Numbered from the stretch's first letter, positions 440 through 29,982 are shown. The stretch is 30,514 nucleotides of DNA from an uncultured archaeon (GCA_964510585.1 CAZECW010000094.1:1-30514); one strand, 5' to 3'. Made by a program: numbers and translations. The notes: a model not told the origin generated them from the letters alone.

Positions 440-482
440 GAGAAATGTTTGAAACAAAAAGATGATTTAAGAGGTGAAAACT

Positions 483-851
483 ATGGTGAGACTGGTATTT
501 CCTATATTGGAATTCGATGGAGAATATTCTATAATCTCAGACCATTTTGGAAGAGCCCCCTTCTTTGCAGTCGTAGACATATCAGAGGATGGAAGGATCA
601 TTTCAGTGGAGGCAAAGGAGAATACTAGTGAGCATTTCGGTGGTAGAGGTTACCCTCCAGACATAATCGCAGGATTCAACCCTGACTTTATGGTGGTCAA
701 GGGTATGGGTCCAAGAGCCATCAGTATGTTTCAGGAAAGAGGTATAAGAGTACTCATGTGCGACGCAGTTTCAATAGCCGAAGCAGTAAAGTTATTCGTA
801 AAGGGAAAACTGGGAGATGTCGAACCCTGCGAAGAACACAGACGCGAATAA
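483..851 (+). CDS. NifB/NifX family iron-molybdenum cluster-binding domain protein
   Basis: DHFGRAPFFAVV and GMGPRAISMFQERGIRV motifs, with C-terminal C-x-x-H. ATG 483 follows the SD GAGGTGA (the ORF track starts at GTG 474). Confidence 0.85.
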   Translation: MVRLVFPILEFDGEYSIISDHFGRAPFFAVVDISEDGRIISVEAKENTSEHFGGRGYPPDIIAGFNPDFMVVKGMGPRAISMFQERGIRVLMCDAVSIAEAVKLFVKGKLGDVEPCEEHRRE

Positions 852-906
852 GTATGAACATTAGCACATTTTAATAAAAAATCGGAGGATATGGAGGTTT
901 CAAAAA

Positions 907-1788
907 ATGGAAAACAAAAATAACATGAACGAAAGGAGAATTAGTCCTCAGGCTGCCCGTATGCAAGAAATCCTGGACGATGAGAAGAGAGTTAGGGAAA
1001 GAATGGCTAAGGTGAAGCATAAAATAATAGTGATGTCTGGAAAAGGTGGCGTTGGAAAGAGCACTGTAGCAGCTAACTTGGCGGTGGCGATGTCCAAATT
1101 GGGTAGCAGGGTAGGAATTTTAGACTCAGACATACACGGTCCATCGATACCAAAAATAATGGGTGTAGAGGGACTACGCCCTAGTGGAGGCCCTACCGGC
1201 ATTTATCCAATATTATCGGGTTACGGGGTAAGGGTTATTTCAATAGACTTATTCCTGGAAAACACTGAGGATCCAGTAATTTGGCGTGGCCCTTTGAAAA
1301 TGAGTGCTATTAGACAATTCCTATCGGATGTTGATTGGGGTGAACTTGATTACCTGTTCATTGACCTGCCACCGGGAACTGGTGACGAACCGCTGAGTGT
1401 GATGCAGCTTCTTCCTAATATGGATGGCGCAGTAATTGTCACAGCTCCCTCAGATTTATCAAAGCACGTAGTCAAAAAGGCTATTAATATGAGTATCAAA
1501 ATGAATATTCCAGTGATCGGAATAATAGAGAACATGAGTGGCTTTGTATGTCCCAATTGTGGGGAAAAATATGATCTCCTGGGCTCAGGCGTAGGTAAAG
1601 AAATGGCTGAAGAAATGAACGTTAGGTTTCTGGGCCAAATCCCCATCGACCCCGAAATAAGTAAAAACTCGGATAAAGGCGTTTCATTCCTAATCGAAGA
1701 TCCGAACAGAGAATCCTCAAAAATTTTTATGGGGATAGCCCAAAAAATTAAAAACATTGTAGAAAACAAAAATGATAGTGGAAAGTGA
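907..1788 (+). CDS. mrp: Mrp/NBP35 (ApbC) ATP-binding iron-sulfur cluster carrier protein
   Basis: Deviant Walker A SGKGGVGKST, plus DSDIHGPSIP, WRGP, DLPPGTGD and ENMSGFVCPNC (CxxC). SD GGAGG upstream. Confidence 0.95.
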   Translation: MENKNNMNERRISPQAARMQEILDDEKRVRERMAKVKHKIIVMSGKGGVGKSTVAANLAVAMSKLGSRVGILDSDIHGPSIPKIMGVEGLRPSGGPTGIYPILSGYGVRVISIDLFLENTEDPVIWRGPLKMSAIRQFLSDVDWGELDYLFIDLPPGTGDEPLSVMQLLPNMDGAVIVTAPSDLSKHVVKKAINMSIKMNIPVIGIIENMSGFVCPNCGEKYDLLGSGVGKEMAEEMNVRFLGQIPIDPEISKNSDKGVSFLIEDPNRESSKIFMGIAQKIKNIVENKNDSGK

Positions 1789-1796
1789 GCTAAAAA

Positions 1797-2144
1797 TTGC
1801 CGCATGGAAGATGCAAATGGAGAAGGGGTAGGTGCGGACGCCCAAAAATACCAAGATGCATAAGTAATCCGCCCTCAGTAAGTCAGCTCTCCCCCACATC
1901 TTTATTTAGAGAAGTGGACTTGGAGCCCATAAAAATGTTCTATGACGAATATGAAGTTCTAAGACTTATTGATTACCTAGGTCTAGATCAGGAGGAAGCC
2001 GGAAAAAGAATGGGAGTATCCCGTGGAACTGTATGGCGGCTACTTCAGAGTGCACGAAAAAAATTGGTCAGCACAATCGTTGAGGGAAGAGAACTCCAAC
2101 TGGTAGAGAATGAACAAGTAGGAACAGAGTCTCAAAAGTCTTAA
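1797..2144 (+). CDS. DUF134 domain DNA-binding protein
   Basis: GRPKIPRCI N-terminus and EYEVLRLIDYLGLDQEEAGKRMGVSRGTVWRLLQSARKK helix-turn-helix. TTG start. Confidence 0.9.
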   Translation: MPHGRCKWRRGRCGRPKIPRCISNPPSVSQLSPTSLFREVDLEPIKMFYDEYEVLRLIDYLGLDQEEAGKRMGVSRGTVWRLLQSARKKLVSTIVEGRELQLVENEQVGTESQKS

Positions 2145-2201
2145 CTCCAGAGACTGCTAGAAAAATAATTTTCCTTTAACTTATCGCTACTCTGACAGAA
2201 T

Positions 2202-2945
2202 GTGAAAGTTATGCTGGATGAAGTAGAATCGTTGAAAATCACAACTATAGTTGATAATAATACTCTAAGTAGAGAATTGGAGTCTACTTGGGGGCTTTCA
2301 TTTTTTGTTTCGGTTACTGTTAGGAATAAGCTTTTCAACGTTTTAGTGGACACCAGTGGCTCGGCTCAAGCCTTTTTCCATAATATTGATAAACTGGGGA
2401 TAAAGCCTCAGAACATTGACGCTATCTTCATATCCCACAGACATACAGACCACTTTGGAGCCTTGCCCTATGTCCTGGAATCAATTGCCAAGCCGGTAAT
2501 GGTTTATGTTCCATCTTTCAGATTTTTCGATTCAGACTATCTACAAGAACTGGGAGGAATACAGGTAGTGACAGACAGAGCTTCAATTCTATTTCCTGGA
2601 GGAATGTCCACTGGAGATGTGGGAAGGGGGTTAAGTGAACATGCTCTGATAGTGAACGTGAAGAATAAAGGATTAATGATAATTACGGGCTGCTCCCATC
2701 CGGGAGTAGTGGAAACCATTAGAAAGGCTTGCGAGGTGAGTGAGGTTTCAAGAATTTATGGAATTATGGGGGGATTTCACATCTCAGGCAAAGAGGCAGA
2801 AAAGGTAGCAGACTACCTGCAAGAAATTGGAGTGAAAATGGTTTCACCAGCCCACTGCACCGGCACAGAGGCAAAAGAAATAATTAAACAAAAACTAGAA
2901 AAAGAATACGTTGCCAATGGATCAGGACTAATAATTACAATTTAG
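2202..2945 (+). CDS. MBL-fold metallo-hydrolase
   Basis: WGLS, VDT, SHRHTDHFG (HxHxDH), ITGCSHPG, GGFH and HCTG motifs. Start may be ATG 2211. Confidence 0.9.
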   Translation: MKVMLDEVESLKITTIVDNNTLSRELESTWGLSFFVSVTVRNKLFNVLVDTSGSAQAFFHNIDKLGIKPQNIDAIFISHRHTDHFGALPYVLESIAKPVMVYVPSFRFFDSDYLQELGGIQVVTDRASILFPGGMSTGDVGRGLSEHALIVNVKNKGLMIITGCSHPGVVETIRKACEVSEVSRIYGIMGGFHISGKEAEKVADYLQEIGVKMVSPAHCTGTEAKEIIKQKLEKEYVANGSGLIITI

Positions 2946-3138
2946 CTCAATTAATCAGGAAGGCCCTAAACAAAAAAGAGATTTAAAACATTTGGAAGAT
3001 ATCACTTACCTACACAGGATATGCAATTGAAACCGTTCGACCTCTCAATTTTGAATAAACAACAGCATATTTTATGAAGTGGTAAGCAAATATGCAAAAT
3101 ACGGGATTTTAACGGTTTATTTTAATTTAAAGGGTTCC

Positions 3139-4122
3139 TCATTTCAGGCCTTTTTTTCTTCTACTTGGCAGCTTGCGCATATAGAATTTCTGTCCTTCAA
3201 ATTCGAGTTCAATGAGCTTGCCCTTTTTAATCAGGTTACGCACCACGCTCCAATCACTATCTGCCTTTTTCAAAAAATTTTCAAGGGCGTCCTCACGCAT
3301 TGGATGAACCGAAGTAATGTTCATCAAGTCCTCAACAAAATCTCCCGTGGAGGCGAAACTGTCTCCTTCATACCCAATCAAGTACTCAACTCTATTTTCC
3401 CCCAGCTTTTCTCTAAATTTTTGGTAGGCTAAATTGATAAAATGTTCGCTTGCCGGCTTTACCCAATTCTCCGCGGGGGGCCTTGTGGGTATAGCGACAT
3501 AAGATTTTACTGGTTTAAGGTTTACCAAGAATTCTGCAATACGACTAATTTCTTTTTCATCATCGTTAACACCGCGAATAAGCATCGTTTCGGTTATGAG
3601 GTCACCCTTAAACTCATGAGCAAACTTTACCATACCATCCAGAATATGATTATAGTTAAGTGAGCTGTGTGGTCTATCCACTAAACGCCAAAAATTCTCA
3701 CCAAAGGCATCCACCTTAAGAGATACTAAGTCAGCTATGGAAAGATCCCTTCTAACATCGGTTCTATCTATAAGTGAGGCATTAGTTATAACGGCTATTC
3801 TTATGCCAAGCTCTTTTAGTAAAGAGATCTCCTCACCTAGAGACTTGTCTAAAGTGGGCTCCCCGTCAGGAACAAAAGTTAAATAATCAATTTTATCCCC
3901 TCTTTTTCCAACCTTCTCAACAAGCCTCTGAACTTCTCTAAAAATTCTCTCGGGCTTGTAAAAGCTCCGTCGTTCAACCTGTTCTTTTATGGTGCTACCC
4001 AACTGGCAATAGATGCATGAATATGTACAAATTTTTGCAGGAATATTATTTACACCAAGACTACGCCCCAAACGCCTCGAGGGCACAGGTCCAAAAGCGA
4101 TAATAAATCTCGCCCCCATCAA
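3139..4122 (-). CDS. Radical SAM protein (FGPVPSRRLGRSLG family)
   Basis: CTYSCIYC (CxxxCxxC), DGEPTL and ITNASL motifs, with N-terminal FGPVPSRRLGRSLGVN. Confidence 0.9.
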   Translation of the reverse strand: MMGARFIIAFGPVPSRRLGRSLGVNNIPAKICTYSCIYCQLGSTIKEQVERRSFYKPERIFREVQRLVEKVGKRGDKIDYLTFVPDGEPTLDKSLGEEISLLKELGIRIAVITNASLIDRTDVRRDLSIADLVSLKVDAFGENFWRLVDRPHSSLNYNHILDGMVKFAHEFKGDLITETMLIRGVNDDEKEISRIAEFLVNLKPVKSYVAIPTRPPAENWVKPASEHFINLAYQKFREKLGENRVEYLIGYEGDSFASTGDFVEDLMNITSVHPMREDALENFLKKADSDWSVVRNLIKKGKLIELEFEGQKFYMRKLPSRRKKGLK

Positions 4123-4283: not shown

Positions 4284-4701
4284 CTAGTAGTTTGTAAGTT
4301 GTCTTATGTTTGTTCTCTTTAGCTCCTTTACAATGTCGAAGTCGGTGTCATCACTTATCATTGTTAGGTTTTTGCTCAGCGCCGCACTAGCATTTATTGC
4401 ATCTCTTTGTTTTAAATCGTATCTCTCCAAGAGTCTCTGTGCCTTAAGTAGTGCACTCCCGTCAACCTCTATGAATTTTAGTTTGGGGAATTGTAGCAGC
4501 ATTTTTCCCTTTCAGCTGCGTCTTTGCTCCCTAATGTTTTTTAACTACCCATACGAGTTCATCCCACGTGAGGGTTGAAGTGTAAGCGTCCACAAACCCT
4601 TTCTCGACACAGGCTAATATTACTCTTGCTTTTGCCGCTTGGAAAATTGTATCCCCATAAATTATTGGATATATTAAGACATTTGAGTCGAGGTATGCCA
4701 T
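4284..4701 (-). pseudogene. vapC: PIN-domain (VapC) toxin, frameshifted
   Basis: ATG 4701 gives MAYLDSNVLIY...TLTWDELVWVVKKH then a stop. Two single-base losses in A-runs (about 4540 and 4510) are needed to join the C-terminal half MLLQFPKLKF...QRDAINASAAL...ISDDTDFD. Confidence 0.8.
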
Positions 4702-4949
4702 CGGGCCGCAACCTCTTCCTCAATTAGTTTTTTAATATTTACAGGTTCATTTAATTTTGGAGAATGCGTCTTAACGAAGTATTCGGTGAAGGATTCTACT
4801 CTGTATTCTGGTTTTGCCCTTCTTATCACCACTTTATCCTCCTCCACCTCTATAATCACCTCACTTCCTTCCCGAAGCCCTAATGCGTCTCTCATTTCCT
4901 TGGGAATTACTACTTGGCCTTTTGGTCCGACGACACGCTTACTTATCAA
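4674..4949 (-). CDS. AbrB/MazE/SpoVT-family antitoxin
   Basis: VGPKGQVVIPKEMRDALGLREGSEVIIEVEEDKVVI. It overlaps the start of the PIN gene. Confidence 0.9.
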   Translation of the reverse strand: MISKRVVGPKGQVVIPKEMRDALGLREGSEVIIEVEEDKVVIRRAKPEYRVESFTEYFVKTHSPKLNEPVNIKKLIEEEVAARWHTSTQMS

Positions 4950-8084: not shown

Positions 8085-9239
8085 TCATCTAGTTATTTCC
8101 TTGGGTATGGGGGTTATTTCTTTTTTGAAGAGTTTATTTCTGAGCCATAAGGAAATGTTTACCATGTTTATGAGTACTGGGACTTCTAGTAGGGGTCCTA
8201 TGACTGCTGCGAATGCTTGACCTGAAGCTATGCCGAAGACTCCTATTGTTACCGCTATTGCCAATTCGAAGTTGTTACTGGCGGCTGTAAAGGCTATGGT
8301 TGCTGTATTCTCGTAGCTGAATCCTAGACGCCAAGACATCACATAGGATATTAGGAACATTATGACGAAGTATAGAACTAGTGGAATTGCGATTCTCAGA
8401 ACATCGTAGGGGAGGGAAATTATTTTTCCGCCTTGAAGCGAAAACATCATTATAACCGTGAAGAGTAGACCTATTAGAGCAGTTGGGGCCAGCTTCTTAA
8501 CAAAGTAGCCATCATACCACTCTTTTCCTCTTCTCCTTATCAGGCTGTATCTGGTTATCATACCGGCAAATAGAGGTATGCCCAAGTATATTATGACACC
8601 TTTAGCTATGTCAATAATTGACACGTTTACCACTGCGGCCCCCGTAAGGCTCAGTATCCAAGAGGGTACCCCAAGGATTCCCAGAATCCAGCTATATTCC
8701 GCAAACCATGTCGGTGTTCCAGTGAGCAACGAAGGAAGGAAGGTGATATATATGTAAGCTAGTATGGAGTACATTATCATCTGGAAAACCGAGTTTAGAG
8801 CAACTAAAACTGCGCAGAGTTCACTGTCCCCTTTTGCGAGCTGGTTCCAAACAAGTACCATAGCAATGCAGCGAGCCAGCCCAACAATTATGAGCCCCAT
8901 ACGGTACTCGGGCATGTCGGGTAAGAAAACCCACGCTAATGCAAACATTAGCGCTGGGCCAATTATCCAGTTTTGAACAAGGGATAACGCGAAGGCTCTC
9001 TTGGCTCCAAAGAGTCTTGAGAGTTCCTCGTATTTTACTCTGGCTAGTGGTGGATACATCATCCATATGAGTCCTATAGCGATGGGTAGGGAGACGGTGT
9101 CGAGCCTTAGTTCATTAAGAATTCCAGAAACCTCGGGAACCGTGGCGCCTAGTAAAACTCCGATAGCCATTGCCAGAAAAATCCACAGTGTTAGAAATCT
9201 GTCCAGAAGAGAGAGCTTTTGAGTACTTTGATTTGACAT
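8085..9239 (-). CDS. acr3: ACR3-family arsenite efflux transporter
   Basis: [55 protein letters not shown] and GPLLEVPVL motifs. Confidence 0.96.
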
Positions 9240-9324: not shown

Positions 9325-9512
9325 GGGGAGATTGTTGTATATTGCTAAACTAGTGCTTGAGCCGAACGCATTCAAACAAACACTCTTAATGAGAATCTTT
9401 TTATTTCTAAGCAAACACCAAGCGATTTTAATTAAGGACATTTTACGGTAGGTTTAAGTGTATTTAAGATTATCGTTTCATATTGATATTTATAGATTTA
9501 GGATGTGAATCG

Positions 9513-9893
9513 ATGGAACGTTTAGCACGCCTAATCGAGGAGGATGAGTGCTCGGCAAAGTGTGAAGAATACGCTGATGAACTAAAAAAATTAATGGTAG
9601 AGATGGATAAAACCCCGTTATGCAAGTTTGGATCTCTACTTTTTAAAGCCCTAGCGGATCGTAATCGTCTAAGAATTTTGAAGATGCTGGCTGTTAGAGA
9701 GATGTGTGTTTGCGAATTAAATGTGGCATTAGACATTTCTCAGGGAACAATATCGCACCATCTGAAAATCCTCCAAGAAGCCAAATTAATAAAGGGAAGA
9801 GTGAAAGGTAAATGGAACTATTACCGACTCAGCAGTAAACAAGTTGATAAATTCATAAAAATCAGCGAACAACTCATAAAGGAATTATACTAA
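9513..9893 (+). CDS. arsR: ArsR/SmtB-family metalloregulator
   Basis: FKALADRNRLRIL, EMCVCEL (alpha3 CxC) and SQGTISHHLKIL motifs. Extra N-terminal Cys (ECSAKC, PLC). ATG 9513 is preferred over the ORF-track start at 9483. Confidence 0.93.
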   Translation: MERLARLIEEDECSAKCEEYADELKKLMVEMDKTPLCKFGSLLFKALADRNRLRILKMLAVREMCVCELNVALDISQGTISHHLKILQEAKLIKGRVKGKWNYYRLSSKQVDKFIKISEQLIKELY

Positions 9894-10212: not shown

Positions 10213-11250
10213 TTATTTAATTTTGTCCATTTCTTCTTTGATGCTTTCTAGAATTTGTTCTTGGGAGGGTGTGGTTTTTGTGAATTTTAGATTTCCATTG
10301 ATTATTAATGCGGGTATTAGAGAGTTTTTTCCTGCCTCTATTAATCCTTTTGAAACTGTGGTTCCTGGGGGGCGGGCTTCTCCTTTTCTCCAGATTCTGA
10401 GTTCTATTTTTTGTTCTTCTCCTGACTCCTCAATTGCTTTTTTAACGTTTTCCTCGATCTCTGAGCATGTTTCTGTTGGTGGGTTGTCTAAAAGTAGTTC
10501 GATTAACAGTTTTCCGTAGGCTAGGGGAGGGATTCCATAAAGCAACCATTTTTCTGTTGTGTACTTGGTTTCGAGAACTGTCTTGAGGAACTCTTTTTCC
10601 TGCGGCGTTAAGTCTCCTTTTACGAGTTTTACTTTGAAATCGTTAATTATTTTGATGCAGGTGTTCTTGATGAAATCCTCTCGGGATAAATTTTCCTTAT
10701 AACGGTTTTTTATGCTTGTAATTATTCTGGGAAGCAGATTTAACCTGTTTGGAACTGTGAAATTTGTATCAAGGTAAACGACTCCCTGAAAAACGAGTAC
10801 ATCATAGTACCAGAATTGGGCGGCTTGCGAAACAATTTTCCCATCTTCAACTAGATAAAAAGGATCCTCATACGTGCAGGGTATGCCGTAGGATCTGATG
10901 GCTCTTATTATGGGACTATAAATTGCCACATAAATTTCTCGGATATTCTTGGGCAAATCATAATTCTTTGTGTTGATAATGAAGGTGAATATTAGTGAGT
11001 TTTCATCGATGAAAAAGCTGGGACCGAAGGTGTGTCTCCTAGCAAGCTCAATTCCGTGCTTTTTGAGTGTGTCTATTTCCTCCTCTTCTAATGTGTCGTC
11101 GCCGATGCTTAATGTTGGTTTACAGCTCCAAAAATGGATGGTGCTTGGCGCTAGAGAGTTATGCACTTGGATCATGATTGTTTCATCCATTGCAAATCCT
11201 ACATGAGGGTTTAAATGCTCGTTAATTATTAGTCTAATTTCGTTAGCCAT
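10213..11250 (-). CDS. Degenerate lipoate-ligase (LplA/BPL fold) domain fused to C-terminal thioredoxin-like domain
   Basis: AMDETIM, TIHFWS and ARRHTFGP (vs RRxSGGG). KIVSQAAQ...FQG replaces RKISGNAQ...HGT. C-terminal IELL...PPTETCSEIE...IPALIING...PS. Confidence 0.8.
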   Translation of the reverse strand: MANEIRLIINEHLNPHVGFAMDETIMIQVHNSLAPSTIHFWSCKPTLSIGDDTLEEEEIDTLKKHGIELARRHTFGPSFFIDENSLIFTFIINTKNYDLPKNIREIYVAIYSPIIRAIRSYGIPCTYEDPFYLVEDGKIVSQAAQFWYYDVLVFQGVVYLDTNFTVPNRLNLLPRIITSIKNRYKENLSREDFIKNTCIKIINDFKVKLVKGDLTPQEKEFLKTVLETKYTTEKWLLYGIPPLAYGKLLIELLLDNPPTETCSEIEENVKKAIEESGEEQKIELRIWRKGEARPPGTTVSKGLIEAGKNSLIPALIINGNLKFTKTTPSQEQILESIKEEMDKIK

Positions 11251-11271: not shown

Positions 11272-11613
11272 TTATTTAGATAGGGATTCTATGTCCTTTG
11301 TGGTTTCTGATATTCTGCGTAGGTGTTCTAGTATCATTTCATCGATCAGTTTTAGAACGAGGAATATTCGTGGATCCTTAACCTTATACTCCACTTTTTG
11401 CCCAATTTTTTTGTGCTCTAATATGTTGCAATTTTTTAGGATTTGAATGTGTTGGGAAACTGTAGATTGAGACTTGTAAACGTGGGGTAAAATATCGCAT
11501 TGACAGCACTCACCACTCCTCAGAAGATCCAGAATCTTCAACCTGGTTTCATCAGCCAAGGCTTTGAGCAGCTCAATCCTCTTCTTATACAGAAGCTCCT
11601 CCTTCTTCTCCAA
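11272..11613 (-). CDS. arsR: ArsR/SmtB-family metalloregulator (CCxC type)
   Basis: LKALADETRLKILDLLRSGECCQCDI and SQSTVSQHIQIL. Confidence 0.92.
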   Translation of the reverse strand: MEKKEELLYKKRIELLKALADETRLKILDLLRSGECCQCDILPHVYKSQSTVSQHIQILKNCNILEHKKIGQKVEYKVKDPRIFLVLKLIDEMILEHLRRISETTKDIESLSK

Positions 11614-11666: not shown

Positions 11667-12263
11667 CTAAATTTGGATAACGTGAATCTTTTTTTCAAGC
11701 TCCGCAGATTTTTCACTATCCAAATAGGGACAAGCGCGGGGAGAGTTTTCACCAGTTGCTAGCTTTATGGCAAATCCGTAACATGTGGAAACCCCACACT
11801 CCCCACAATCCTTTTTGGGCAAAAATTTGTTGATTTCAATTGGGCTGAGCTTGGTTTTGCTACTCATCAACTCCGGAGATATCTTCCCGTGGCGATTCAC
11901 ATAAATAGAAGCTCGATTTAAAAGATCCTTAACGTATCTCAGGATACTTTCGGCTTCTTCCCTATCTTTAAGATTTGTAACAGTTATTTTCCCAGCACCA
12001 AAAATTGTGATTAGATGCTCCTGAAACATGAAGCTCATGGACTCCGACTGCCTATTATATGTGGCCTGGGGAAGGTAAAGGTAAATGGCGGGAAGCAAAT
12101 CATCCAGATTTTCACTAGTGGTTCCCACAACTCTTATCCTCTCGGAGCTTGTCAAACAGGGAAGAACTTCAGATATTTTAATCTCCTTCACTCTGGGAGG
12201 AATAAGTAGATTAATAAGGGAAGACCCCTTTTGCCCATCATCAACCATAATCATATCCTCCAT
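11667..12263 (-). CDS. Fe-S-binding protein (COG4871-like; C-terminal putative Fe-S domain)
   Basis: N-terminal LPCLTSSERIRV...HLITIFGAGKITV and C-terminal LPKKDCGECGVSTCYGFAIKL...CPYL. ATG 12263 follows the SD AGGTG. Confidence 0.8.
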   Translation of the reverse strand: MEDMIMVDDGQKGSSLINLLIPPRVKEIKISEVLPCLTSSERIRVVGTTSENLDDLLPAIYLYLPQATYNRQSESMSFMFQEHLITIFGAGKITVTNLKDREEAESILRYVKDLLNRASIYVNRHGKISPELMSSKTKLSPIEINKFLPKKDCGECGVSTCYGFAIKLATGENSPRACPYLDSEKSAELEKKIHVIQI

Positions 12264-12366
12264 TAACACAAACACCTAAACATCACATTAGTTTCTACCC
12301 GCATTTCTAACAAGTTAAAAGACCATCAACTCCTACTGCATTGAACATAGAAAAAAATGCATTTAA

Positions 12367-12386
12367 ATATTGCTATATGATAATAT
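12367..12386. promoter_or_regulatory. Putative ArsR-type operator
   Basis: ATATTG-CTATATGA-TAATAT adjacent to TTTAAAT, upstream of the Fe-S/ArsR/ligase-like unit. Confidence 0.5.
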
Positions 12387-12565: not shown

Positions 12566-12844
12566 CTAATTAGTAACATTCTTTGATTCTAGTATGGATT
12601 CCAGTATTGCCTCCTCCAAGGTTTCTGGCTGGACATTTTTGATAAACTTTTTGGTTCCATTTATCACAATGCCTACATCTTTAATATTGTACTTCCTTGC
12701 TTCCTCAGAAAGAGAGGATTTTAAAATGAATTCGATGTGGTCTCTGTATTTTAGGGAAGTGCTCCACACGCGATCTAGAAATTCTGAATAGTAGCAGCCG
12801 CACAACTCTATGGGAACAAAAATTTCTAATTTGATTTTTGACAT
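12566..12844 (-). CDS. Small thioredoxin-fold-like protein with CxC motif
   Basis: KIKLEIFVPIELCGCYYSEFLDRV...GIVINGTKKF. Clear paralog of 28749..29009. Confidence 0.75.
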   Translation of the reverse strand: MSKIKLEIFVPIELCGCYYSEFLDRVWSTSLKYRDHIEFILKSSLSEEARKYNIKDVGIVINGTKKFIKNVQPETLEEAILESILESKNVTN

Positions 12845-17529: not shown

Positions 17530-17631
17530 GTAAAAGAAACATAAATAACCAAAAAACATCGGCAAGTTCTTGTAAGAACACTTGAAAAAAGTTAAATACA
17601 TGTATATGTGTATTTAATTTTGGTGGTATCA

Positions 17632-17880
17632 TTGGGACATAAGACCATTACAATTTCCGAGGAGGCATATAATTCACTAGCTGCGCTTAAACGTGAGAAT
17701 GAAAGTTTCACAGAGGTAATCCTCAGAGTAGTTTCCGAACTAAACAGGAAGCCGCTAACTTGGTTCGCGGGGAAATGGATTGGCGATAAATCAGAGCTTG
17801 ATGAGATTCTTAGGGTAATTCGCAGCGCCTGGACTGAGTATGAGGCAGAGCTAGGTGAGAGGAAAAATGGTTTGTTTTGA
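17632..17880 (+). CDS. vapB: VapB-type antitoxin (DUF217/COG1753-like)
   Basis: KTITISEEAYNSLAALKRENESFTEVILR...FAGKW. TTG 17632 is preferred as start. Confidence 0.88.
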   Translation: MGHKTITISEEAYNSLAALKRENESFTEVILRVVSELNRKPLTWFAGKWIGDKSELDEILRVIRSAWTEYEAELGERKNGLF

Positions 17881-18262
17881 TACTGATTTTATGGTGGCTT
17901 TACTCAAGGGACAGAGTGAAGCTATAAAAAAGGCGGAAGAGATAGAGAGTAGGGGAGAGAGGAAGACAACAACACCCATAGGCGCGTTTGAACTGTTCCT
18001 CGGTGCGAATCTTTCCAAGCATCAATTACAGAACATTAAATTAGTAAATAACTTCCTGCGAAACTTGGAGATTCTGAACTTTGATTTGGCAGCAGCAGAG
18101 AGAGCCGGAAAGATAGAAGCAGAACTCAGAAGATCAGGGAAGCCTATCGGGGTCAGAGACTCTATAGTTGCAGGAATAGCACTAAGACACGAACAAAAAA
18201 TTATCACAAAAAATGTTAAGCATTTTAGTCAAATTAGCGGCCTTTCTTATGAATCTTGGTAA
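17867..18262 (+). CDS. vapC: PIN-domain (VapC) ribonuclease toxin
   Basis: MVCFDTDF, GAFELFLG, IGVRDSIVAGIAL and ITKNVKHF motifs. Confidence 0.92.
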   Translation: MVCFDTDFMVALLKGQSEAIKKAEEIESRGERKTTTPIGAFELFLGANLSKHQLQNIKLVNNFLRNLEILNFDLAAAERAGKIEAELRRSGKPIGVRDSIVAGIALRHEQKIITKNVKHFSQISGLSYESW

Positions 18263-20267: not shown

Positions 20268-20750
20268 TTATGTTACCTTTTTTGTTACTGGGGCTTTTTT
20301 ACATACGCTGTTTTTTGGGGAAACTATTTGTTTCTCGTAGAGTTCATCCACCTTTTTTGCGATTTCTTCTGCGATTTTGTACGCTAATTCGTAACCAGCC
20401 TCGCCGAGGTCTTCTCGGGATTTGGGAACCAAAGCAGGGTATTTTTTCATTATTTCCTTTACTCTAATGGTTGCTGCTACAGGGCCGCTGTAGTTTTCCA
20501 CAGCAGTTCTGGCACATTCTTCTTCGCACCCTTCAATTGTGATTGTTGGGTGGGTCTTTGCAAATTCCCTTTCTTGGTTTCTACCTTTTCTTTCTAGTCC
20601 TCCAGCCATGAATAGGGGTTGACATAGGATTACAGTTTTTTCAGGTCGTAACTTTTCAAAAGCTATTATTGCAGCAACTCGGGATAAGGTGCCTTCAACC
20701 AAGTCTTCGCCACTGCAGGCAATGAGCCCAATTTTCTGTCTTATAGGCAA
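20268..20750 (-). CDS. DGC-domain putative zinc-binding protein (type B)
   Basis: IACSGEDLVEGT, ILCQP and IEGCEEECA (Cys4). TTG 20750 follows the SD GGTGA (the ORF track starts at 20786). Confidence 0.85.
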   Translation of the reverse strand: MPIRQKIGLIACSGEDLVEGTLSRVAAIIAFEKLRPEKTVILCQPLFMAGGLERKGRNQEREFAKTHPTITIEGCEEECARTAVENYSGPVAATIRVKEIMKKYPALVPKSREDLGEAGYELAYKIAEEIAKKVDELYEKQIVSPKNSVCKKAPVTKKVT

Positions 20751-20751
20751 G

Positions 20752-21171
20752 TTAATCACCGTTTCTTTTTTCTTCAAGTAACTCATTTATTTTTTGGTAG
20801 ATTTTTTCTGCAAGTTTGCGGGATAGTTTTTTTGCATTTTCTCCTAGTGGATAAACACTTCTTTCTGGTTTCAATTCACGATTTTCTTTTAATACATCTG
20901 TTGACAGGAATTGAGCATCAATTTTTCCCACAGCTTCTGAAACATCATTATACGAACACTTTAGAGAACACCCGTCAATCACAATAACTTTGTTTGATTT
21001 TAGTTTATCAATAACTTCTTTTTTCCCCTTAACAATTAGTGGGAGACATTCTGTGTCCGCCTTGCCTTTAGCTAGTTCGTTTACCACGATGTATGCTGCT
21101 TCTCTGCCTATACTGCCATAGACTTTACCTATTCCACTGCAGGGAAGCAGGTAAACTATTTCTTTTGTCAA
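20752..21171 (-). CDS. DGC-domain putative zinc-binding protein (type A)
   Basis: LPCSGIGKVYG, ECLP and IDGCSLKCS. Confidence 0.88.
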   Translation of the reverse strand: MTKEIVYLLPCSGIGKVYGSIGREAAYIVVNELAKGKADTECLPLIVKGKKEVIDKLKSNKVIVIDGCSLKCSYNDVSEAVGKIDAQFLSTDVLKENRELKPERSVYPLGENAKKLSRKLAEKIYQKINELLEEKRNGD

Positions 21172-21173
21172 GC

Positions 21174-22055
21174 TCAGTCGCCTATGTTTTGTGCTCTGTG
21201 TTTTCGTTCTTCTTCTATTTTCTTTTTCATATACTCAAAATAGGCTGGACCGTCCATTAATAATTCTTTATCCTCTTCAAAGTTTTTCAGTTCTACTTCT
21301 ACGAACCATCCCTTCCCATAGGGATCTTGATTTAATAGTTCGGGTGATTTTTCTAGTTCCTTGTTCACCGCGACGACTTTGCCTGAAGCGGGAGTAATCA
21401 GTTGGAGGACAATTTTTATGGATTCAAAGCTTCCTATGTCGTCAAACTGTTCAAATTCCAAACCGATTTCGGGAAATTCCACAAAAATTATGTCGCTTGC
21501 CATGTTTTGGAGGAAATCAGAGATGCCCATAAGCGCCTTTTTACCCATGGGTTTTACCCAGCAATCATTTTCATTAAAATAGTAGCCAGACTTTGGAACT
21601 CTGAAACGGAACTTATCTACGGTGGTTTCAAAATATTCGATTTCTTCCAGCTCCCTAATCTCAGCAACCTCACCTTCTGATTCCTTTAAACTTTCAAGAA
21701 TTTCGGACGCTATGAATTCGGCTAATTTTTGCCCCTCCTCATCCAAAATGAGAGATTTTCCGGGGTTCAACTTGTACTTTTTAACCATGTCGGGCGTAAA
21801 AATTTTTTTACCGGGCCTTAATGATCTTTCATCAAGTAGCTTAGTTGCGCAGCGAGTCATACATCCATCAATCACAATTATATCAGATTCCTTCAAGAGT
21901 TCTTCGTATTTTTCATCTCCCGTATTCAGGAGAACGGGGCATATCAGCTCGATGTCAGGATTCTTTTCTATTAATTTCAATGCCACGTTTCTAGCAACAA
22001 CACCCAAAGACTTATCAAGCCCATTGCAGGGCAAAACACAAACCTTCTTACCCAT
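21174..22055 (-). CDS. DGC-domain / glycine-cleavage-H (lipoyl carrier) fusion protein
   Basis: N-terminal LPCNG, ICP and IDGCMTRCA. C-terminal GISDF..DIIFVEFP..GSFESIK (lipoyl Lys, codon 21414-21416)..PASGKVVAVN..PELLNQDPYGKGW. Confidence 0.9.
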   Translation of the reverse strand: MGKKVCVLPCNGLDKSLGVVARNVALKLIEKNPDIELICPVLLNTGDEKYEELLKESDIIVIDGCMTRCATKLLDERSLRPGKKIFTPDMVKKYKLNPGKSLILDEEGQKLAEFIASEILESLKESEGEVAEIRELEEIEYFETTVDKFRFRVPKSGYYFNENDCWVKPMGKKALMGISDFLQNMASDIIFVEFPEIGLEFEQFDDIGSFESIKIVLQLITPASGKVVAVNKELEKSPELLNQDPYGKGWFVEVELKNFEEDKELLMDGPAYFEYMKKKIEEERKHRAQNIGD

Positions 22056-22068
22056 GAGAAATTCACCT

Positions 22069-22371
22069 CTACTCGCTTTCCTTCCTTAATTCTTTGATTA
22101 GCTTGGTAATCTCTCTTTTGTCGGGAAATGATAGTGCGTCCACAGCGCAGGTTTTGGCGCAAGCCCTACAAAAAACTACACAGTTGTATGGGTTTTTTAC
22201 TATCAGTTTCTTTTCCTCATTTTCTCTCCGCTCGTAAACGTTGTGGGGACAAAACTTGTCGCACTCCATACAGAAATTGCACTTGCTGTAGTCGATTGTG
22301 GGGAACCAGGGAATTTTCTTTCTGGGAACGCCCATAAAGGTTTCCTGTTCCGCATCGTACTCTTTACTCAT
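22069..22371 (-). CDS. 2x[4Fe-4S] ferredoxin-like protein
   Basis: CNFCMECDKFCP and CVVFCRACAKTC, with an N-terminal FMGVPRKKIPWFPTIDY extension. Confidence 0.9.
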   Translation of the reverse strand: MSKEYDAEQETFMGVPRKKIPWFPTIDYSKCNFCMECDKFCPHNVYERRENEEKKLIVKNPYNCVVFCRACAKTCAVDALSFPDKREITKLIKELRKESE

Positions 22372-22762
22372 TCTTTTCTTCCTCCTCCTCTTTCTTTTCT
22401 TGGTATTCTTCTAGGGTTTTTTCAACTAGTTCTACAGCTTGGTCTGTTGTCATTTCTCTTATGTCGAGGGGTATGAGGTCTTTTTTTACATCTAGACCCG
22501 CTTTTTCGAAAGAGTCACGAAACAGTTTATATTGCATGTTGGGAGCGCAACCCGCTATGAGGTATTTTCGTCCGGGACGCAGAAAATCTTCAAGGAAGCG
22601 GTCACCATCTTCTTCGCAAAGCTGTGGATGAATAAACGCATATTCTACGGGTAGTTCTACACGTACCCGGTTAATAAAGTCCCAAATATCCATTTTTGCA
22701 AATCCTGGACATTTACCGGTGCATACGCACATTATAACGCCGATGTCTTTTTCTTCACTCAT
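22364..22762 (-). CDS. Stand-alone HdrA N-terminal-domain-like protein
   Basis: IGVIMCVC, QLCEEDG, IAGCAPNM..LFR and DIRE mirror the HdrA N-terminus (IGVYxCHC, MCSDPG, VAACSP..FR, NIRE). ATG 22762 is preferred; the ORF-track extension runs through the promoter. Confidence 0.7.
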   Translation of the reverse strand: MSEEKDIGVIMCVCTGKCPGFAKMDIWDFINRVRVELPVEYAFIHPQLCEEDGDRFLEDFLRPGRKYLIAGCAPNMQYKLFRDSFEKAGLDVKKDLIPLDIREMTTDQAVELVEKTLEEYQEKKEEEEEKNE

Positions 22763-22880
22763 TTCAAATTTCCACCTTTTTTGCAATGCTTGCCAAAAAT
22801 TTTTCCGAATGAATCTGCCTCTATAATTCTGGAATAAATTTTTTATGAACATAAGGACGAGGGAGTAGATAAATATAAAT

Positions 22881-22900
22881 ATATCGATTAATGGCAATAT
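22881..22900. promoter_or_regulatory. Putative ArsR-type operator
   Basis: ATATCG-ATTAATGG-CAATAT in the divergent intergenic region. Confidence 0.65.
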
Positions 22901-23066
22901 TATAATAAAAGATGTGTAGGTGTCCAAATATTTTCAAAATCCCGACATTAAAGCATTTTTTATTCAAAGATGCTACCAAAAATATCGTTTATAGATAGCA
23001 ATTATAACATTTGTTCTTTTTTGTAGAAAGAGGAAGCGGAATTAATTCAGGCCTAGTAATATTGAT

Positions 23067-23095
23067 ATATTGTCATAAAACGATAAGTTTAAATA
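23067..23095 (+). promoter_or_regulatory. Putative ArsR-type operator plus TATA box
   Basis: ATATTG-TCATAAAA-CGATAA (23067-23086) immediately before TTTAAATA (23088-23095). Confidence 0.6.
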
Positions 23096-23275
23096 CTTCA
23101 CTGAAATTGTACCATTGTCAGAAAGTCTATTTCGCACCCAACTATAACACAAAGAAAGAAATCCTTAAAGCAAATCTTTGACGCATTGCCAAAGAGAAAA
23201 GTGCGGACAATGTAATTTTGTATTCTGGAAATATGTGAAGAACAATTCAGACCTCAGTCAGGGAGGAAGTGAAAA

Positions 23276-23692
23276 TTGACTAAAAAGGTTGTAGTGCTAC
23301 CCTGCAGCGGCGTTGGAAAAGTTTACGGAACAATTTCACGTGAAGCAGCCTACAAAGCAGTCGAAGAACTTAAACTAGGAAAAACATCAATCACCTGTCT
23401 ACCACTACTAGTGGTGGGAGACGATGACGCCGAAAAGCTGGTTCAGGAGAATCCCTGTATCGTCATAAATGGTTGTCCATCAGGCTGCGCGACCTTAGCA
23501 ACTGAGAAGGCTGGAGGAAAGATAGTTCAGATAATTGACGTTACCAAAGTGCTCAAGGAGAACAGAGATTTAAAACCTAACCAGATGGCCATAAGAGAAC
23601 TTGACCCGAAGGGGAAAAAGTTAGCTGAGATAATAGCGGAAAAGATCAGTCAAGAGGTAGATAGAATATTAGACTCAGAGGAAGGAGGTTGA
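23276..23692 (+). CDS. DGC-domain putative zinc-binding protein (type A)
   Basis: LPCSGVGKVYG, TCLP and INGCPSGCA. Paralog of 20752..21171. Confidence 0.88.
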   Translation: MTKKVVVLPCSGVGKVYGTISREAAYKAVEELKLGKTSITCLPLLVVGDDDAEKLVQENPCIVINGCPSGCATLATEKAGGKIVQIIDVTKVLKENRDLKPNQMAIRELDPKGKKLAEIIAEKISQEVDRILDSEEGG

Positions 23693-23696
23693 AACA

Positions 23697-24122
23697 TTGT
23701 TTATTCCAATGGTAGGAGTGGTTCCCTGTAGTGGCGAGGAAATACCTGAAGGGACTGTTGCGAGAATTGCTGCACGCATTGTTTTGGAGAAGTTGAGACC
23801 CACCAAAACCATGACCATCTGCTTGCCTCTATATCTTGCTGGAGGAAAAGATGAGCAGGAGTTTGTCAGGAGGCAACCCACAATTGTCATAGATGGCTGC
23901 GGCAAGGGATGCGCTGAAAAAAGTATAAGAAAAAATGGGGGAAACATAGCCGCAGTAATCAGGGTTCCCGAAATAATGAATGGATGTAAACTTAGGGCAA
24001 AGACCAGGGCCAAGCTGGATGAAGAAGGCGAAAAACTGGCTGAGATAGTAGCAGAAAAAATCGCAGAGGAGGTAGACAGAGTACTCCAAGAAATGAAAAA
24101 GAAAAGCGAACAAGGAGGATAA
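23697..24122 (+). CDS. DGC-domain putative zinc-binding protein (type B)
   Basis: VPCSGEEIPEGT, ICLP and IDGCGKGCA. Paralog of 20268..20750. Confidence 0.88.
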   Translation: MFIPMVGVVPCSGEEIPEGTVARIAARIVLEKLRPTKTMTICLPLYLAGGKDEQEFVRRQPTIVIDGCGKGCAEKSIRKNGGNIAAVIRVPEIMNGCKLRAKTRAKLDEEGEKLAEIVAEKIAEEVDRVLQEMKKKSEQGG

Positions 24123-24253
24123 AACTGACCAAAAAATCAAAAAACGAAATGTTACTTGTCTAACTTTTTCAAATACAAAGTTTTGCGAAAAATTCGCTAA
24201 ACGAATAGTACTCAGGTAAAAAATTTGAAAATGAATTTAGAGGAGGAAAAGAA

Positions 24254-25803: not shown

Positions 25804-26859
25804 TTATGGGAGAATTGTTTTTGCTTGCATTATTGCTACTATGAGGTCTGTTGGTTTTATTCCAGGTGTAATAATATTTTGTTTATAAAAATCTTCGACT
25901 ATTTGTTTTATGTTTTGATAGTTGTATGGTTTGTCTTTTAGCATTTTTTCGAGTTGTTTTAGTGCCTGTGGAGGGGTTATGAAGAAGTCTCCGCTTATGT
26001 TTATTTCTTTAATATTGTTGTTGGATATGTTTAGTGAGACGCGTATTAGTCCTCCGGGTGCCTTGTACACGGTTTCGTGTTCAAACTCGAGGCTGCTTCC
26101 AAAAATCCACTCGGGGGAGCTATACTTTTTTTGGAGTTCCCGGGCCATTTCGAGTTCTTCTGGTGTGAGTTTCGAGTCCTGGAACTCGACGCCAAGAGCT
26201 TCTTGGTATCCCCTGCGAACCGCGTTTTTCACAATACTCACGGGAATTGTTGTCCCCAGCTCCCTTTTTATTGTTGTCACTCTATCTCTTACTGAGGATG
26301 CATTCTTGTCCCTGAGTTTTTCGGTGGACACTCTCAGAGCATTTTCTAAATTTTCAAAGTTTAGATCTATGAGGAGTGTTCCGTGATGGATGAGAACATT
26401 ATGGAGTTGGTGCTGAGCGTTTCCAGAAATTTTTCTTTTACCAATAACAATATCATTTACGGGCTTAAACTCTGCCTCCAGTCCCAATAATTTAAGGGCG
26501 ATAATTAAACCTCTACAGAGATACGAGTATGATTCTATGGGGTCTTTGAAGGATCTGAACTTGTTAGTGTCTATGTAGAGTGAGTAGTTTAGGTTTCCCG
26601 AATCCTGGTACACTGCCCCGCCCCCCGATAGTCTTCTAACTATTTTTATTCCCTTCTGTTTACAGTAGTCTACATTCACTTCTTTCTCTACCCGCTGGTT
26701 GCACCCTACACTTACGATTAGGGGGTGTTGCCACACTCTGAGAGCGTTTGGAGAATTTTTTTCCAGTATGCTTCTGGCCATGGTTTCTTCTATTGCTAGG
26801 TTCATGTATGGGTCATCTGAACTATAGTCGATAAAGCGCCAGGACTCCTTCAAAGTCAC
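25804..26859 (-). CDS. lplA: Lipoate-protein ligase A (with C-terminal adenylation-assisting domain)
   Basis: YMNLAIEE, VRRLSGGGAVYQDSGNLNYS, VNDI, RKISGNAQ, HHGTLL and C-terminal YKAPGGLIRV...ISGDFF. Confidence 0.93.
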   Translation of the reverse strand: MTLKESWRFIDYSSDDPYMNLAIEETMARSILEKNSPNALRVWQHPLIVSVGCNQRVEKEVNVDYCKQKGIKIVRRLSGGGAVYQDSGNLNYSLYIDTNKFRSFKDPIESYSYLCRGLIIALKLLGLEAEFKPVNDIVIGKRKISGNAQHQLHNVLIHHGTLLIDLNFENLENALRVSTEKLRDKNASSVRDRVTTIKRELGTTIPVSIVKNAVRRGYQEALGVEFQDSKLTPEELEMARELQKKYSSPEWIFGSSLEFEHETVYKAPGGLIRVSLNISNNNIKEINISGDFFITPPQALKQLEKMLKDKPYNYQNIKQIVEDFYKQNIITPGIKPTDLIVAIMQAKTILP

Positions 26860-26867: not shown

Positions 26868-27902
26868 TTACTTTATTCTTTTAATCTCTTCCCTTACAAT
26901 ATTTGAAAACTCTTCAGGGGTGGGAACAGTTCTTCCATATTTTAGTTCGCCGTTTACTATCACTGCAGGAATCTGGGACTTTTTAGCAGCTTCTATTAAC
27001 CCGTTTGTAACAGTGACACCGGGAGGTAGACCTCTCCCCCTTCTCCATATCCTTAACTCAATTTCTTCTTCGTTCCCAGACATTTTTATTCCCTCCTTCA
27101 CATTTTTTTCTATCTGGGAACACATTTTAGTGGGGGGAGAAGCAGTCAAAACCTCTATGAGAAGTTTACCATAAGCTAGAGGTGGAGAAAACTCCAAATT
27201 CCACCTTGGAGACTGATACTTAGTTTTCAAAACCCGTTCAAAAGTTTTATTCTCTAAATCTGTCAAGCTTCCCTCAATAAGGGTGGCTCCAAATTTTTCC
27301 CTTATTCTACTTGAGGCTTCCTCTATAAACTCTCTAACAGTTTTTTTGCTTGATGAGAGCCGTGTTAGACTGGATACCTTTTTGGGGAGGATACCCGCAG
27401 AGTTGGCAAAATCCACGTCGACATCCAAGTAAACGACGCCCTGAAAAACTAATATATCATAGTACCAAAACTGTGAAACTTGAGAGGTTACCACATCATC
27501 TACGAATAGGTAAGATGTATTATCAAAGGCACATTTTACGCCAAAATTTTCTATTGTTTCGATTATTGGAGAGTAAACCAGCCGGTACAAATCATTTAAC
27601 TCTCTTGGAAAAAGAGGATCACGTGTATCAAGGATGAAGCCAAATAGTAATGAACCTTCATCAGCGTAGAATGTTGGTCCATCAGTAACCCTCCTAATAA
27701 TTCGGACGTTTTTCTCTTTGAGGAAACTCATCTGGTCTTGGTTCAACCGCAGGTTTCCTAAAACTATGGAGGGAGGGCTTCTCCAAAAATGTACTGTGTT
27801 GGGTGCATCTCCACCCTTGACGTGGAGCATGATGGTTTCATCTAAAGCCCACCCCAAGCTTGGCTCAACAAGGTCTTGGATAAAAATTCTTAGTTCCTTA
27901 AT
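26868..27902 (-). CDS. Degenerate lipoate-ligase domain fused to C-terminal thioredoxin-like domain (paralog of 10213..11250)
   Basis: ALDETIM, TVHFWR, IRRVTDGP and VVTSQVSQ..FQG (no catalytic Lys), with PPTKMCSQIE...IPAVIVNG..PT. ATT 27902 (SD GGAGGT, 1 nt after the upstream stop) fits the paralog alignment. The alternative ATGs at 27953/27977 overlap the upstream gene. Confidence 0.8.
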   Translation of the reverse strand: MKELRIFIQDLVEPSLGWALDETIMLHVKGGDAPNTVHFWRSPPSIVLGNLRLNQDQMSFLKEKNVRIIRRVTDGPTFYADEGSLLFGFILDTRDPLFPRELNDLYRLVYSPIIETIENFGVKCAFDNTSYLFVDDVVTSQVSQFWYYDILVFQGVVYLDVDVDFANSAGILPKKVSSLTRLSSSKKTVREFIEEASSRIREKFGATLIEGSLTDLENKTFERVLKTKYQSPRWNLEFSPPLAYGKLLIEVLTASPPTKMCSQIEKNVKEGIKMSGNEEEIELRIWRRGRGLPPGVTVTNGLIEAAKKSQIPAVIVNGELKYGRTVPTPEEFSNIVREEIKRIK

Positions 27903-27903
27903 T

Positions 27904-28599
27904 TTAGTGACCTCCCTTATAATATACACATTTATCCTTTTTACATTCTTCATTGTTGGAAGAAAAGGGACACCCATCGAAATTTGAGGGTAATTTGATT
28001 TGAAAATTTTTTTCTAAAAAGTCTACGGCGCTTTTTAACGAGGCATAAACGCTGGCTTTGCAGCATCTTGGACCTCCCAACTTTGAGATAGAGAGTAGTG
28101 ATTCACCACTGGCATCCAAAGACTGCGTCCTTTCAGTGTCAGACTTGTAAGTTGCTCCCGTTAGAACGCTCATGGCAATTCCAACACCTGCCCCAGCTCC
28201 GCAAATCCCCCAGGATCCGCAAGTACCATAAGGTATCATTTTCCCCCTCTTAATGGCAATTCTAATTGCTCTGGATGGCAATTCGTGCCCTACATTTTTT
28301 ATTGTGGTTAATAGTACAGCGGGAACAAGGTAGTGATGGATGGGAGAATGCATGGGTATTGCGGGATGCTTCATTATTAGGTTAGCTAGTTCGTATGGGT
28401 TTTTTATTTCACTTCTCTCACAGGTTTTTAAAACTAATTCTTCTGGGAGAGCTAGTCTACAGTTCTCGCACACAAAGTGGTGGTCATCGCAAGTATAGTC
28501 TGCAACTGAAACCTCCTTACAATATATGCACCTTAGCTCTTCAGAAGTTGGGTGAAGAACTTTATTGCAAATATTGCAGTAGAAAACCTCGTTTTCCAA
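27904..28599 (-). CDS. DUF5714-like Cys-rich protein with N-terminal zinc-finger-like domain
   Basis: CNIC, CIYC, C..HHFVCENC, HSPIHHYLVPAVLL, GTCGSWGICGAG, GGPRCCK and CPFS..N.EC....C motifs. Confidence 0.75.
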   Translation of the reverse strand: MENEVFYCNICNKVLHPTSEELRCIYCKEVSVADYTCDDHHFVCENCRLALPEELVLKTCERSEIKNPYELANLIMKHPAIPMHSPIHHYLVPAVLLTTIKNVGHELPSRAIRIAIKRGKMIPYGTCGSWGICGAGAGVGIAMSVLTGATYKSDTERTQSLDASGESLLSISKLGGPRCCKASVYASLKSAVDFLEKNFQIKLPSNFDGCPFSSNNEECKKDKCVYYKGGH

Positions 28600-29588: not shown

Positions 29589-29592
29589 CTTC

Positions 29593-29976: not shown

Positions 29977-29982
29977 AATCAC

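Follow-up and report, generated by a model that had tools for sequence, protein, structure and literature searches.

Can a lipoate ligase fold that has lost the residues of a ligase still serve lipoate chemistry once a thioredoxin-like domain with only one cysteine has been joined to it? The question is raised by a gene, here called copy 1, in a 30,514-nt stretch of DNA from an uncultured archaeon (CAZECW010000094.1, assembly GCA_964510585.1), whose whole length is referred to as the window; a second fusion gene, copy 2, lies further along the same stretch (Table 1). Copy 1 encodes a conserved pseudo-ligase that is under selection and fused to a one-cysteine thioredoxin, within the lipoylation module of an ArsR/ACR3 island equipped with a lipoyl carrier of its own. 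Its function we infer with less assurance: at a probability of about 0.45 by our own estimate, the protein is a non-ligating adaptor that brings its one-cysteine thioredoxin site to the lipoyl arm of the island.

A ligase fold without ligase residues, joined to a one-cysteine thioredoxin fold

Pfam places the LplA-B_cat domain (PF21948) on residues 14–195 of copy 1 (expect value (E) 7.7e-21). In an AlphaFold model of the whole protein (14 family members; mean predicted local distance difference test score (pLDDT) 84), the N-terminal domain superposes on the Thermoplasma LplA 2c8m (Foldseek; E 2e-16, template modeling score (TM) 0.80 by target) and likewise on other ligases. The reference for alignment was the intact LplA of the same window, whose catalytic domain scores 2.8e-59 and passes the TIGR00545 cut-off. 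Against it, RRLSGGG is replaced by RRHTFGP and GKRKISG by DGKIVSQ, with Ile139 at the position of the catalytic lysine; both changes had been proposed in a preliminary description made from the sequence alone, and the alignment bears them out. A third change, given there as HGT to FQG, does replace the HG motif, but the register had slipped by one residue, the actual substitution being HHG to FQG (equivalently, HGT to QGV). As the glycine loop for adenylation, the catalytic lysine and the histidine of HG are all lost, the N-terminal domain should therefore be unable to activate or transfer lipoate itself, in line with the earlier view that this ligase fold is not a ligase. Copy 1 scores 68 bits on TIGR00545 (cut-off 280) and 17–68 bits on the NCBIfam ligase and transferase models as a group (cut-offs 280–800). 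PF10437 and NF053749 found no match in the Pfam and NCBIfam scans, i.e. the canonical C-terminal domain is absent.

Other residues have been kept. Glu23 and Arg71 are invariant in a 23-sequence alignment and Arg6, Trp41 and Asp82 nearly so; a motif table shows Glu23, Trp41, Arg71 and Asp82, not Arg6, to be common to live LplA. In the engineered LplA of E. coli, the counterparts of Glu23 and Trp41 line the lipoate pocket, and by alignment the domain retains three lipoate-pocket residues of LplA (Glu23, Trp41 and Arg71).

The C-terminal domain (residues 243–345) has a thioredoxin fold. Pfam reports a sub-threshold Thioredoxin_3 match at residues 312–337, and the domain profile aligns over its full length with the archaeal thioredoxin 1nho (MTH807; E 2.6e-5), so that T259 and C262 align, in this order, with the two cysteines of CPYC. 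Modeled alone (24 sequences; pLDDT 93), the domain follows the order beta-alpha-beta-alpha-beta-beta-alpha, and its top Foldseek matches are Mj0307, MTH895 and MTH807 (E down to 7.5e-6); thioredoxins of the Protein Data Bank match as well, with ArsD (3mwh; TM 0.56) also listed. Family scores stay below threshold (PF13192, 18.4 bits vs. a cut-off of 24.8; TIGR00412, 18.2 vs. 62). A diverged LplA accessory domain was considered for this region and rejected: because hhalign assigns that relation a probability of only 0.1%, we regard the domain as a replacement. The Foldseek search of each half that had been proposed thus returns LplA for one and archaeal thioredoxins for the other, and the anticipated exchange of the LplA C-terminal domain for a thioredoxin-like domain of ~100 residues, with PPTETC as a TxxC version of CxxC and the cis-proline retained, holds throughout.

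Cys262 is the only cysteine of the domain, which has no CxxC pair. Pro313 (the cis-proline) is invariant, as is the threonine of PPTxxC in the 24-sequence domain alignment; the two prolines of PPT vary little or not at all. The position of Cys262 is a cysteine in about 60 of 64 distinct domain sequences, natural exceptions (n = 3) being members P0021 (Asp), P0029 (Gly) and P0158 (Arg). TxxC, a 'cxxC' arrangement with threonine at the exposed first position, is known as the peroxiredoxin-type active-site variant of the thioredoxin fold, in which the remaining cysteine is reactive (PMC2757866).

Set against the systems closest to it, copy 1 keeps the LplA and thioredoxin folds and lacks the defining features of LplA, of LipB/LipM/LipL, of CxxC thioredoxins and of ArsD. 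With LplA, including the bipartite LplA/LplB of Thermoplasma acidophilum (2c8m, 2art, 3r07), the N-terminal domain shares fold, Pfam family, the Glu, Trp and Arg of the NLAxEE, xxxW and RR motifs and the K-Y...W motif at the domain end; yet the GGG loop, the catalytic lysine and the histidine of HG are replaced, and the thioredoxin fold stands in for PF10437. Unlike LipB/LipM/LipL, it has no lysine at the dyad position, and it scores 19 bits on NF053589 (vs. 400) and 17.6 on NF047857 (vs. 450).

The C-terminal domain has the fold, length class, cis-proline and '..PA.I.NG' strand of the small archaeal thioredoxins and MTH895-ArsE proteins (PF13192, TIGR00412; Mj0307, MTH807 = 1nho, MTH895 = 1ilo), members of which are also encoded in two (L009 and L011) of the 18 related loci that were compared with the window proteins. 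It differs from them by TxxC in place of CxxC, a PPG insert of 12–20 residues, the fusion to a ligase fold and the sub-cut-off scores. Peroxiredoxins likewise have a threonine for the first cysteine and a single cysteine in the first turn of the helix (PMC2757866), but the prolines of the C-terminal domain stand at –5/–4 rather than –7, the conserved arginine is unmatched, and the domain is a minimal thioredoxin instead of a peroxiredoxin elaboration; no peroxiredoxin family matched copy 1 in the Pfam and NCBIfam scans. ArsD (3mwh), too, combines an arsenic-resistance setting with a thioredoxin-like fold that has no CxxC, whereas copy 1 has no Cys12-Cys13-Cys18 site, no ArsA partner in the window and no detectable sequence relation to ArsD.

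Distribution and selection of the family

The closest relatives of copy 1 are all from Asgard archaea, and its motifs are invariant or almost so in 14 Asgard sequences. An exhaustive search recovered ~25 further clusters (clustering at 50% identity) with the two-domain build at 24–34% identity, Bathyarchaeia included, none of which carries an informative name. Given this near-invariance and recurrence, the architecture is not a chance product. A 154-member cluster of the same shape in the ESM Atlas is mostly from Bathyarchaeota. Compared with the orthologue of a congener, copy 1 has a ratio of nonsynonymous to synonymous substitution rates (dN/dS) of 0.117 and is under purifying selection. This archaeal family (Asgard, Bathyarchaeia) is unnamed, and our literature search retrieved no description of the architecture, which the preliminary description had not recognized as characterized either, or of the gene set around it.

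In a tree of ligase domains, all degenerate members fall on one side of a branch with 99% support in the Shimodaira–Hasegawa-like approximate likelihood ratio test (SH-aLRT). Every member of this clade has lost GGG and the SG following the lysine, and a few (P0015, P0017) keep the lysine itself. Three proteins (P0024, P0027, P0031) have an intact GGG, K-x-SG and HG together with a fused, shorter TxxC thioredoxin domain and group with ordinary ligases on the tree; elsewhere, the PPTxxC domain stands free (P0052, P0099, P0150; loci L011, L019, L025, L026). The domain hence exists in three forms, i.e. alone, with a dead ligase and with a live one. One copy-2-type gene (L018, 9859–10916, in genome G025) is split over three reading frames and is either a frameshifted pseudogene or an assembly error.

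In a phylum-wide sample of 301 Asgard genomes, a strong PPTxxC domain occurs patchily, in 13 genomes, and DUF5714 is present in all 13. As DUF5714 itself is found in 80 of the 301, often alone, the dependence runs one way only, and the idea of DUF5714 as an obligate partner of the PPTxxC domain was rejected.

The host genome, a Freyarchaeota-like Asgard to judge by what its nearest proteins are called, has 17 LplA-domain matches, only two of which are of the fused type, both in the window. About 14 are paralogues of 360–400 amino acids (aa; e.g. C189:7192–8277, C193:38064–39182 and C96:774–1904), an expansion unusual for one archaeon; three sequences read from this paralogue family keep the lysine at the ligase position, and several of its members match the accessory domain weakly.

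The ArsR/ACR3 island and its lipoylation module

Table 1. Coordinates of copy 1, its domains and motifs, and the principal features of the island (positions in the window)
Feature	Position	Strand	Basis
Copy 1: degenerate LplA-fold domain and PPTxxC thioredoxin-fold domain	10213..11250	-	345-aa open reading frame (ORF); Pfam; whole-protein model; dN/dS
N-terminal domain, LplA catalytic fold (residues 1–240)	10531..11250	-	Foldseek 2c8m; LplA-B_cat
RRHTFGP (residues 71–77), degenerate RRxSGGG adenylate loop	11020..11040	-	Alignment to intact LplA
GKIVSQ (residues 137–142); Ile139 on the catalytic Lys position, Gln for the Gly of K-I-S-G	10825..10842	-	Alignment
FQG (residues 154–156), replacing HHG	10783..10791	-	Alignment
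C-terminal domain (residues 243–345), small archaeal thioredoxin/MTH895-ArsE-type fold, 12–20-residue insert with PPG	10216..10524	-	Profiles; model; Foldseek
PPTETC (residues 257–262), TxxC on the CxxC position, N-terminus of helix 1	10465..10482	-	Aligned to CPYC of 1nho
IPALIING (residues 312–319), cis-Pro loop and strand 3	10294..10317	-	Aligned to VPAIAING of 1nho
ArsR/SmtB regulator, 21 nt upstream of copy 1, same strand	11272..11613	-	Family match
Protein with C-terminal PF04060 iron–sulfur (Fe-S) domain, first gene of the FeS-ArsR-copy 1 unit	11667..12275	-	Family match; same order in L010, L015
Operator-like palindrome upstream of the FeS-ArsR-copy 1 unit	12367..12386	.	Motif count
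Small CxC protein, 92 aa, paralogue of 28749–29009	12566..12844	-	ORF; loci comparison
Second ArsR/SmtB regulator	9483..9893	+	Family match
ACR3 arsenite efflux transporter	8085..9239	-	TIGR00832, 429 bits vs. cut-off 283
Copy 2 of the fusion, 43% identical to copy 1	26868..27977	-	Orthologues suggest a true start downstream of the first ATG
Catalytically intact LplA with canonical C-terminal domain	25804..26859	-	Catalytic domain; PF10437
DUF5714, Cys-rich, similar to MbdU; constant neighbor of copy-2-type genes	27904..28599	-	Family match; loci
DGC-GcvH fusion, the island's own lipoyl carrier	21174..22055	-	Family matches; loci

Loci of the copy-1 type have the order CxC protein, Fe-S protein, ArsR and fusion, adjoining the second ArsR gene and the ACR3 gene. 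Besides the window, they comprise L010, L015 and a partial locus, L017, which holds ArsR, ACR3 and the end of the fusion gene, inside which it stops; of these loci, the window and L015 alone showed the CxC gene. Copy 1 adjoins no ligase. A palindrome, ATATYG-N8-CRATAT, occurs at eight sites of the window (9305, 12367, 13311, 16952, 22881, 23067, 25602 and 29137) compared with 0.27 expected from shuffles (one mismatch allowed). Most of these sites lie between called genes; sites precede both fusion operons, and ACR3 and ArsR have one between them. This distribution suggests that the island constitutes one regulon. Copy 1 is probably under ArsR control together with ACR3.

Copy-2-type loci share the order (small CxC protein)–DUF5714–fusion or free thioredoxin domain–live LplA in 16 of 16 cases, usually near ArsR, ACR3, DGC-GcvH, more DGC genes, a ferredoxin and a PF04060 Fe-S protein, and sometimes near DsrE/DsrH. 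DUF5714, a PPTxxC thioredoxin and LplA thereby form an unnamed archaeal module, represented by copy 2 and 15 further loci. Copy 1 lacks this adjacency, sitting in the Fe-S–ArsR unit by ACR3, and is a displaced paralogue of the module. All six DGC genes of the host genome and its only DUF5714 gene lie inside the window; the same gene set recurs in other Asgard genomes, and a related set in Bathyarchaeia. The arsenic or thiol role suggested in the preliminary description fits this setting, namely an ArsR operon by ACR3, a common operator, and the island's DGC-GcvH carrier and live LplA.

Several neighboring features deserve mention. The region 20268–24661 contains the DGC-GcvH fusion, a ferredoxin, a 187-aa Cys-rich protein and five more DGC genes, and the order Cys-rich protein–ferredoxin–DGC-GcvH–DGC–DGC is kept in L022, L023, L024 and L026. 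The copy-1 and copy-2 units are each headed by one of two CxC paralogues on the minus strand (86–92 aa, with CGC and CAC; the second at 28749–29009). The latter shows a weak hhalign match to the thioredoxin-like domain (E 0.0015); CxU/UxC selenoprotein forms of PF13192 have been listed (PMC13188914). Directly upstream of the copy-2 unit lie three DsrE/DsrF/DsrH-like (TusBCD-like) genes (29226–30324, minus strand), a trio also present in L012, L014 and L016, which hints at a link to sulfur relay. DUF5714 matches in three genomes (G293, G005, G181) contain one in-frame TGA each. As DUF5714 also resembles MbdU, a double selenoprotein, in NCBIfam, some Asgard genomes may encode it with selenocysteine.

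At the other end, a block adjoining ACR3 (474–4122) encodes a NifX-like protein, an Mrp/NUBPL ATPase, a DUF134 protein, a metallo-beta-lactamase fold and a 327-aa radical SAM protein, and is conserved near ACR3 in L009, L010 and L017. The radical SAM gene (3139–4122) was considered as a lipoyl synthase and rejected, its matches being weak and generic to radical SAM, with no match to LipA or LipS. Toxin-antitoxin-like genes are dispersed in the island, e.g. a MazE-like antitoxin (4674–4949), a VapB/PIN pair (17608–18262) and a PIN gene (24988–25440), which fits its patchy, accessory distribution.

A candidate adaptor for the lipoyl arm and the alternatives to it

How might the adaptor envisaged at the outset operate? 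The dead ligase domain would dock the lipoyl-lysine arm or the DGC-GcvH carrier, and the thioredoxin site would exchange with the dithiolane or dithiol—via a mixed disulfide, sulfane sulfur or an As(III) hand-over—so that an arsenic-induced lipoyl protein might be kept serviceable. Use of the ligase fold as a docking device is suggested by the conservation of Glu23 and Arg71 and the near-conservation of Trp41 and Asp82 while the adenylation residues were lost. In mycobacteria, mammals and E. coli, protein-bound lipoate donates electrons to thioredoxin-like proteins (PMC3426790). The closest functional analogues, the mycobacterial DlaT-AhpD-AhpC relay and the E. coli lipoyl proteins that reduce glutaredoxins, have a dihydrolipoyl arm that exchanges with a thioredoxin-like partner (PMC3426790), but their partners are free dithiol proteins, none of them tethered to a ligase-fold domain or tied to ars genes. 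PF13192 'ArsE' and DGC proteins are encoded in an ArsR/ArsP operon of Pseudodesulfovibrio, which the authors list with those operons of the ArsR regulon whose expression differs with arsenic (bioRxiv 10.1101/2022.10.17.512643). A complex prediction for copy 1 with the GcvH domain of DGC-GcvH, run without controls, scored 0.01 and speaks neither for nor against binding.

Several points weigh against an adaptor that works through Cys262. This residue may not be the essential group, because the three members in which it is substituted nevertheless keep the PPT motif. The second cysteine of CxxC is normally buried in thioredoxins, and the features that accompany a TxxC cysteine in peroxiredoxins (PxxxTxxC and a conserved arginine) are unmatched in the C-terminal domain. 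The linker between the domains (residues 234–244) has a pLDDT <50, with the result that Cys262 is not brought close to the former active site in the model. The arsenic response of the ArsR-family regulators and the operator function of the palindrome are themselves presumed. Finally, the occurrence of the same thioredoxin domain on live ligases suggests a part in ligation itself and not in subsequent servicing.

This last point leads to the main rival, which we hold to be possible but doubtful: the PPTxxC domain would replace LplB or the C-terminal accessory domain needed to make lipoyl-AMP, the dead domain would only dimerize with live LplA, and the redox site may select lipoate or set its redox state. 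A role in ligation, which the preliminary description had left out of account, is a serious alternative, since the domain is found on live ligases (in P0024, P0027 and P0031 at the usual position of the accessory domain) and as stand-alone copies adjoining LplA (L011, L019, L025 and L026), and since in several genomes the island LplA is without any accessory domain; in one Asgard family it consists of the catalytic domain only (~265 aa), L022–L024 being examples of loci with such a ligase, and in G238 the nearest LplB-like sequence adjoins a different LplA. It also agrees with the live LplA found next to the domain in 16 of 16 loci outside the copy-1 type. Precedent exists in Plasmodium LipL1/LipL2 and mammalian LIPT1, where a non-activating ligase paralogue works beside an activating one, and for LipL2 the redox state of lipoate matters (PMC8600131); these proteins still transfer the lipoyl group, whereas copy 1 has no catalytic lysine and carries a fused thioredoxin domain. 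LipL1/LipL2 and LIPT1, for their part, keep the catalytic lysine. On the other side, the neighboring LplA has its own PF10437 domain in the host genome and in L009, copy 1 stands in an ArsR operon beside ACR3 and next to no ligase, the relation to the canonical accessory domain is undetectable by hhalign, and an invariant threonine, a cis-proline and a near-invariant cysteine would be needless in a purely structural part. Both readings could hold side by side: copy 2 may take part in ligation, and copy 1 may have moved to servicing.

A metalloid chaperone independent of lipoate, binding As(III) in the manner of ArsD through Cys262 and Cys125 and passing it to ACR3 or the DGC proteins, is unlikely. 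Cys125 and Cys262 are the only cysteines conserved in all Asgard members, copy 2 has just the two equivalent cysteines, and the ACR3 and ArsR setting and the structural match to ArsD would suit such a function. Yet Cys125 is not conserved beyond Asgard, the Cys12-Cys13-Cys18 motif of ArsD is absent, As(III) sites usually comprise three thiolates, and such a chaperone would account neither for the constant link to LplA nor for the ligase pocket residues that have been kept.

It is highly improbable that copy 1 is still an active ligase, or a lipoyl or octanoyl transferase, working via other residues. The preliminary description had named another lysine in the active site, together with lipoylation by the protein, as a finding that would count against a dead ligase, and Lys138 does immediately precede the old catalytic position, just as the distant members P0015 and P0017 keep a lysine on it. 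However, Lys138 is not conserved among orthologues (it is absent from P0003, copy 2 and the entire copy-2 group), the GGG loop is lost in all degenerate members, the Cys-Lys dyad of the LipB/LipM/LipL type is lacking, and the NCBIfam scores fall far below their cut-offs. That copy 1 is a functionless, decaying duplicate is already so very unlikely that it can practically be set aside, the lost catalytic residues and the split relative in L018 being outweighed by a dN/dS of 0.117, long invariant blocks common to Asgard classes, and synteny kept in four copy-1-type and 16 copy-2-type loci.

Beyond the adaptor itself lies a bolder proposal, against which we would sooner bet than for it. Here, the fusions, DUF5714 and LplA would build and service a dedicated lipoylated DGC-GcvH protein, and Asgard archaea and Bathyarchaeia would have a new arsenic pathway in which the dithiol arm of this protein does the thiol work, either as a carrier of As(III) or thioarsenic to ACR3 or as an arsenate reductant in place of thioredoxin- or glutaredoxin-coupled ArsC. 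As the enzyme acting on this arm, the fusion would load, unload or re-reduce it.

Lipoate is known to serve as cofactor in a few central enzymes and, from more recent work, in sulfur oxidation; its dithiol is also the textbook target of arsenite in cells. In the island described here, which is conserved across Asgard archaea, ArsR and ACR3 are joined by a lipoyl carrier, a ligase and a ligase-derived pseudo-enzyme with a one-cysteine thioredoxin domain. If copy 1 serves as the proposed adaptor, these cells would use a lipoyl protein purposely in metalloid or sulfur handling, a ligase fold would have been recycled as a docking module, and the PPTxxC thioredoxin domain, DUF5714 and DGC would gain their first functional handles; were it an accessory ligase subunit, it would represent a third solution besides the fused and the split accessory domains of lipoate ligases. 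For the surrounding system as a whole, a new kind of arsenic or sulfur pathway centered on a lipoyl protein is a realistic possibility.

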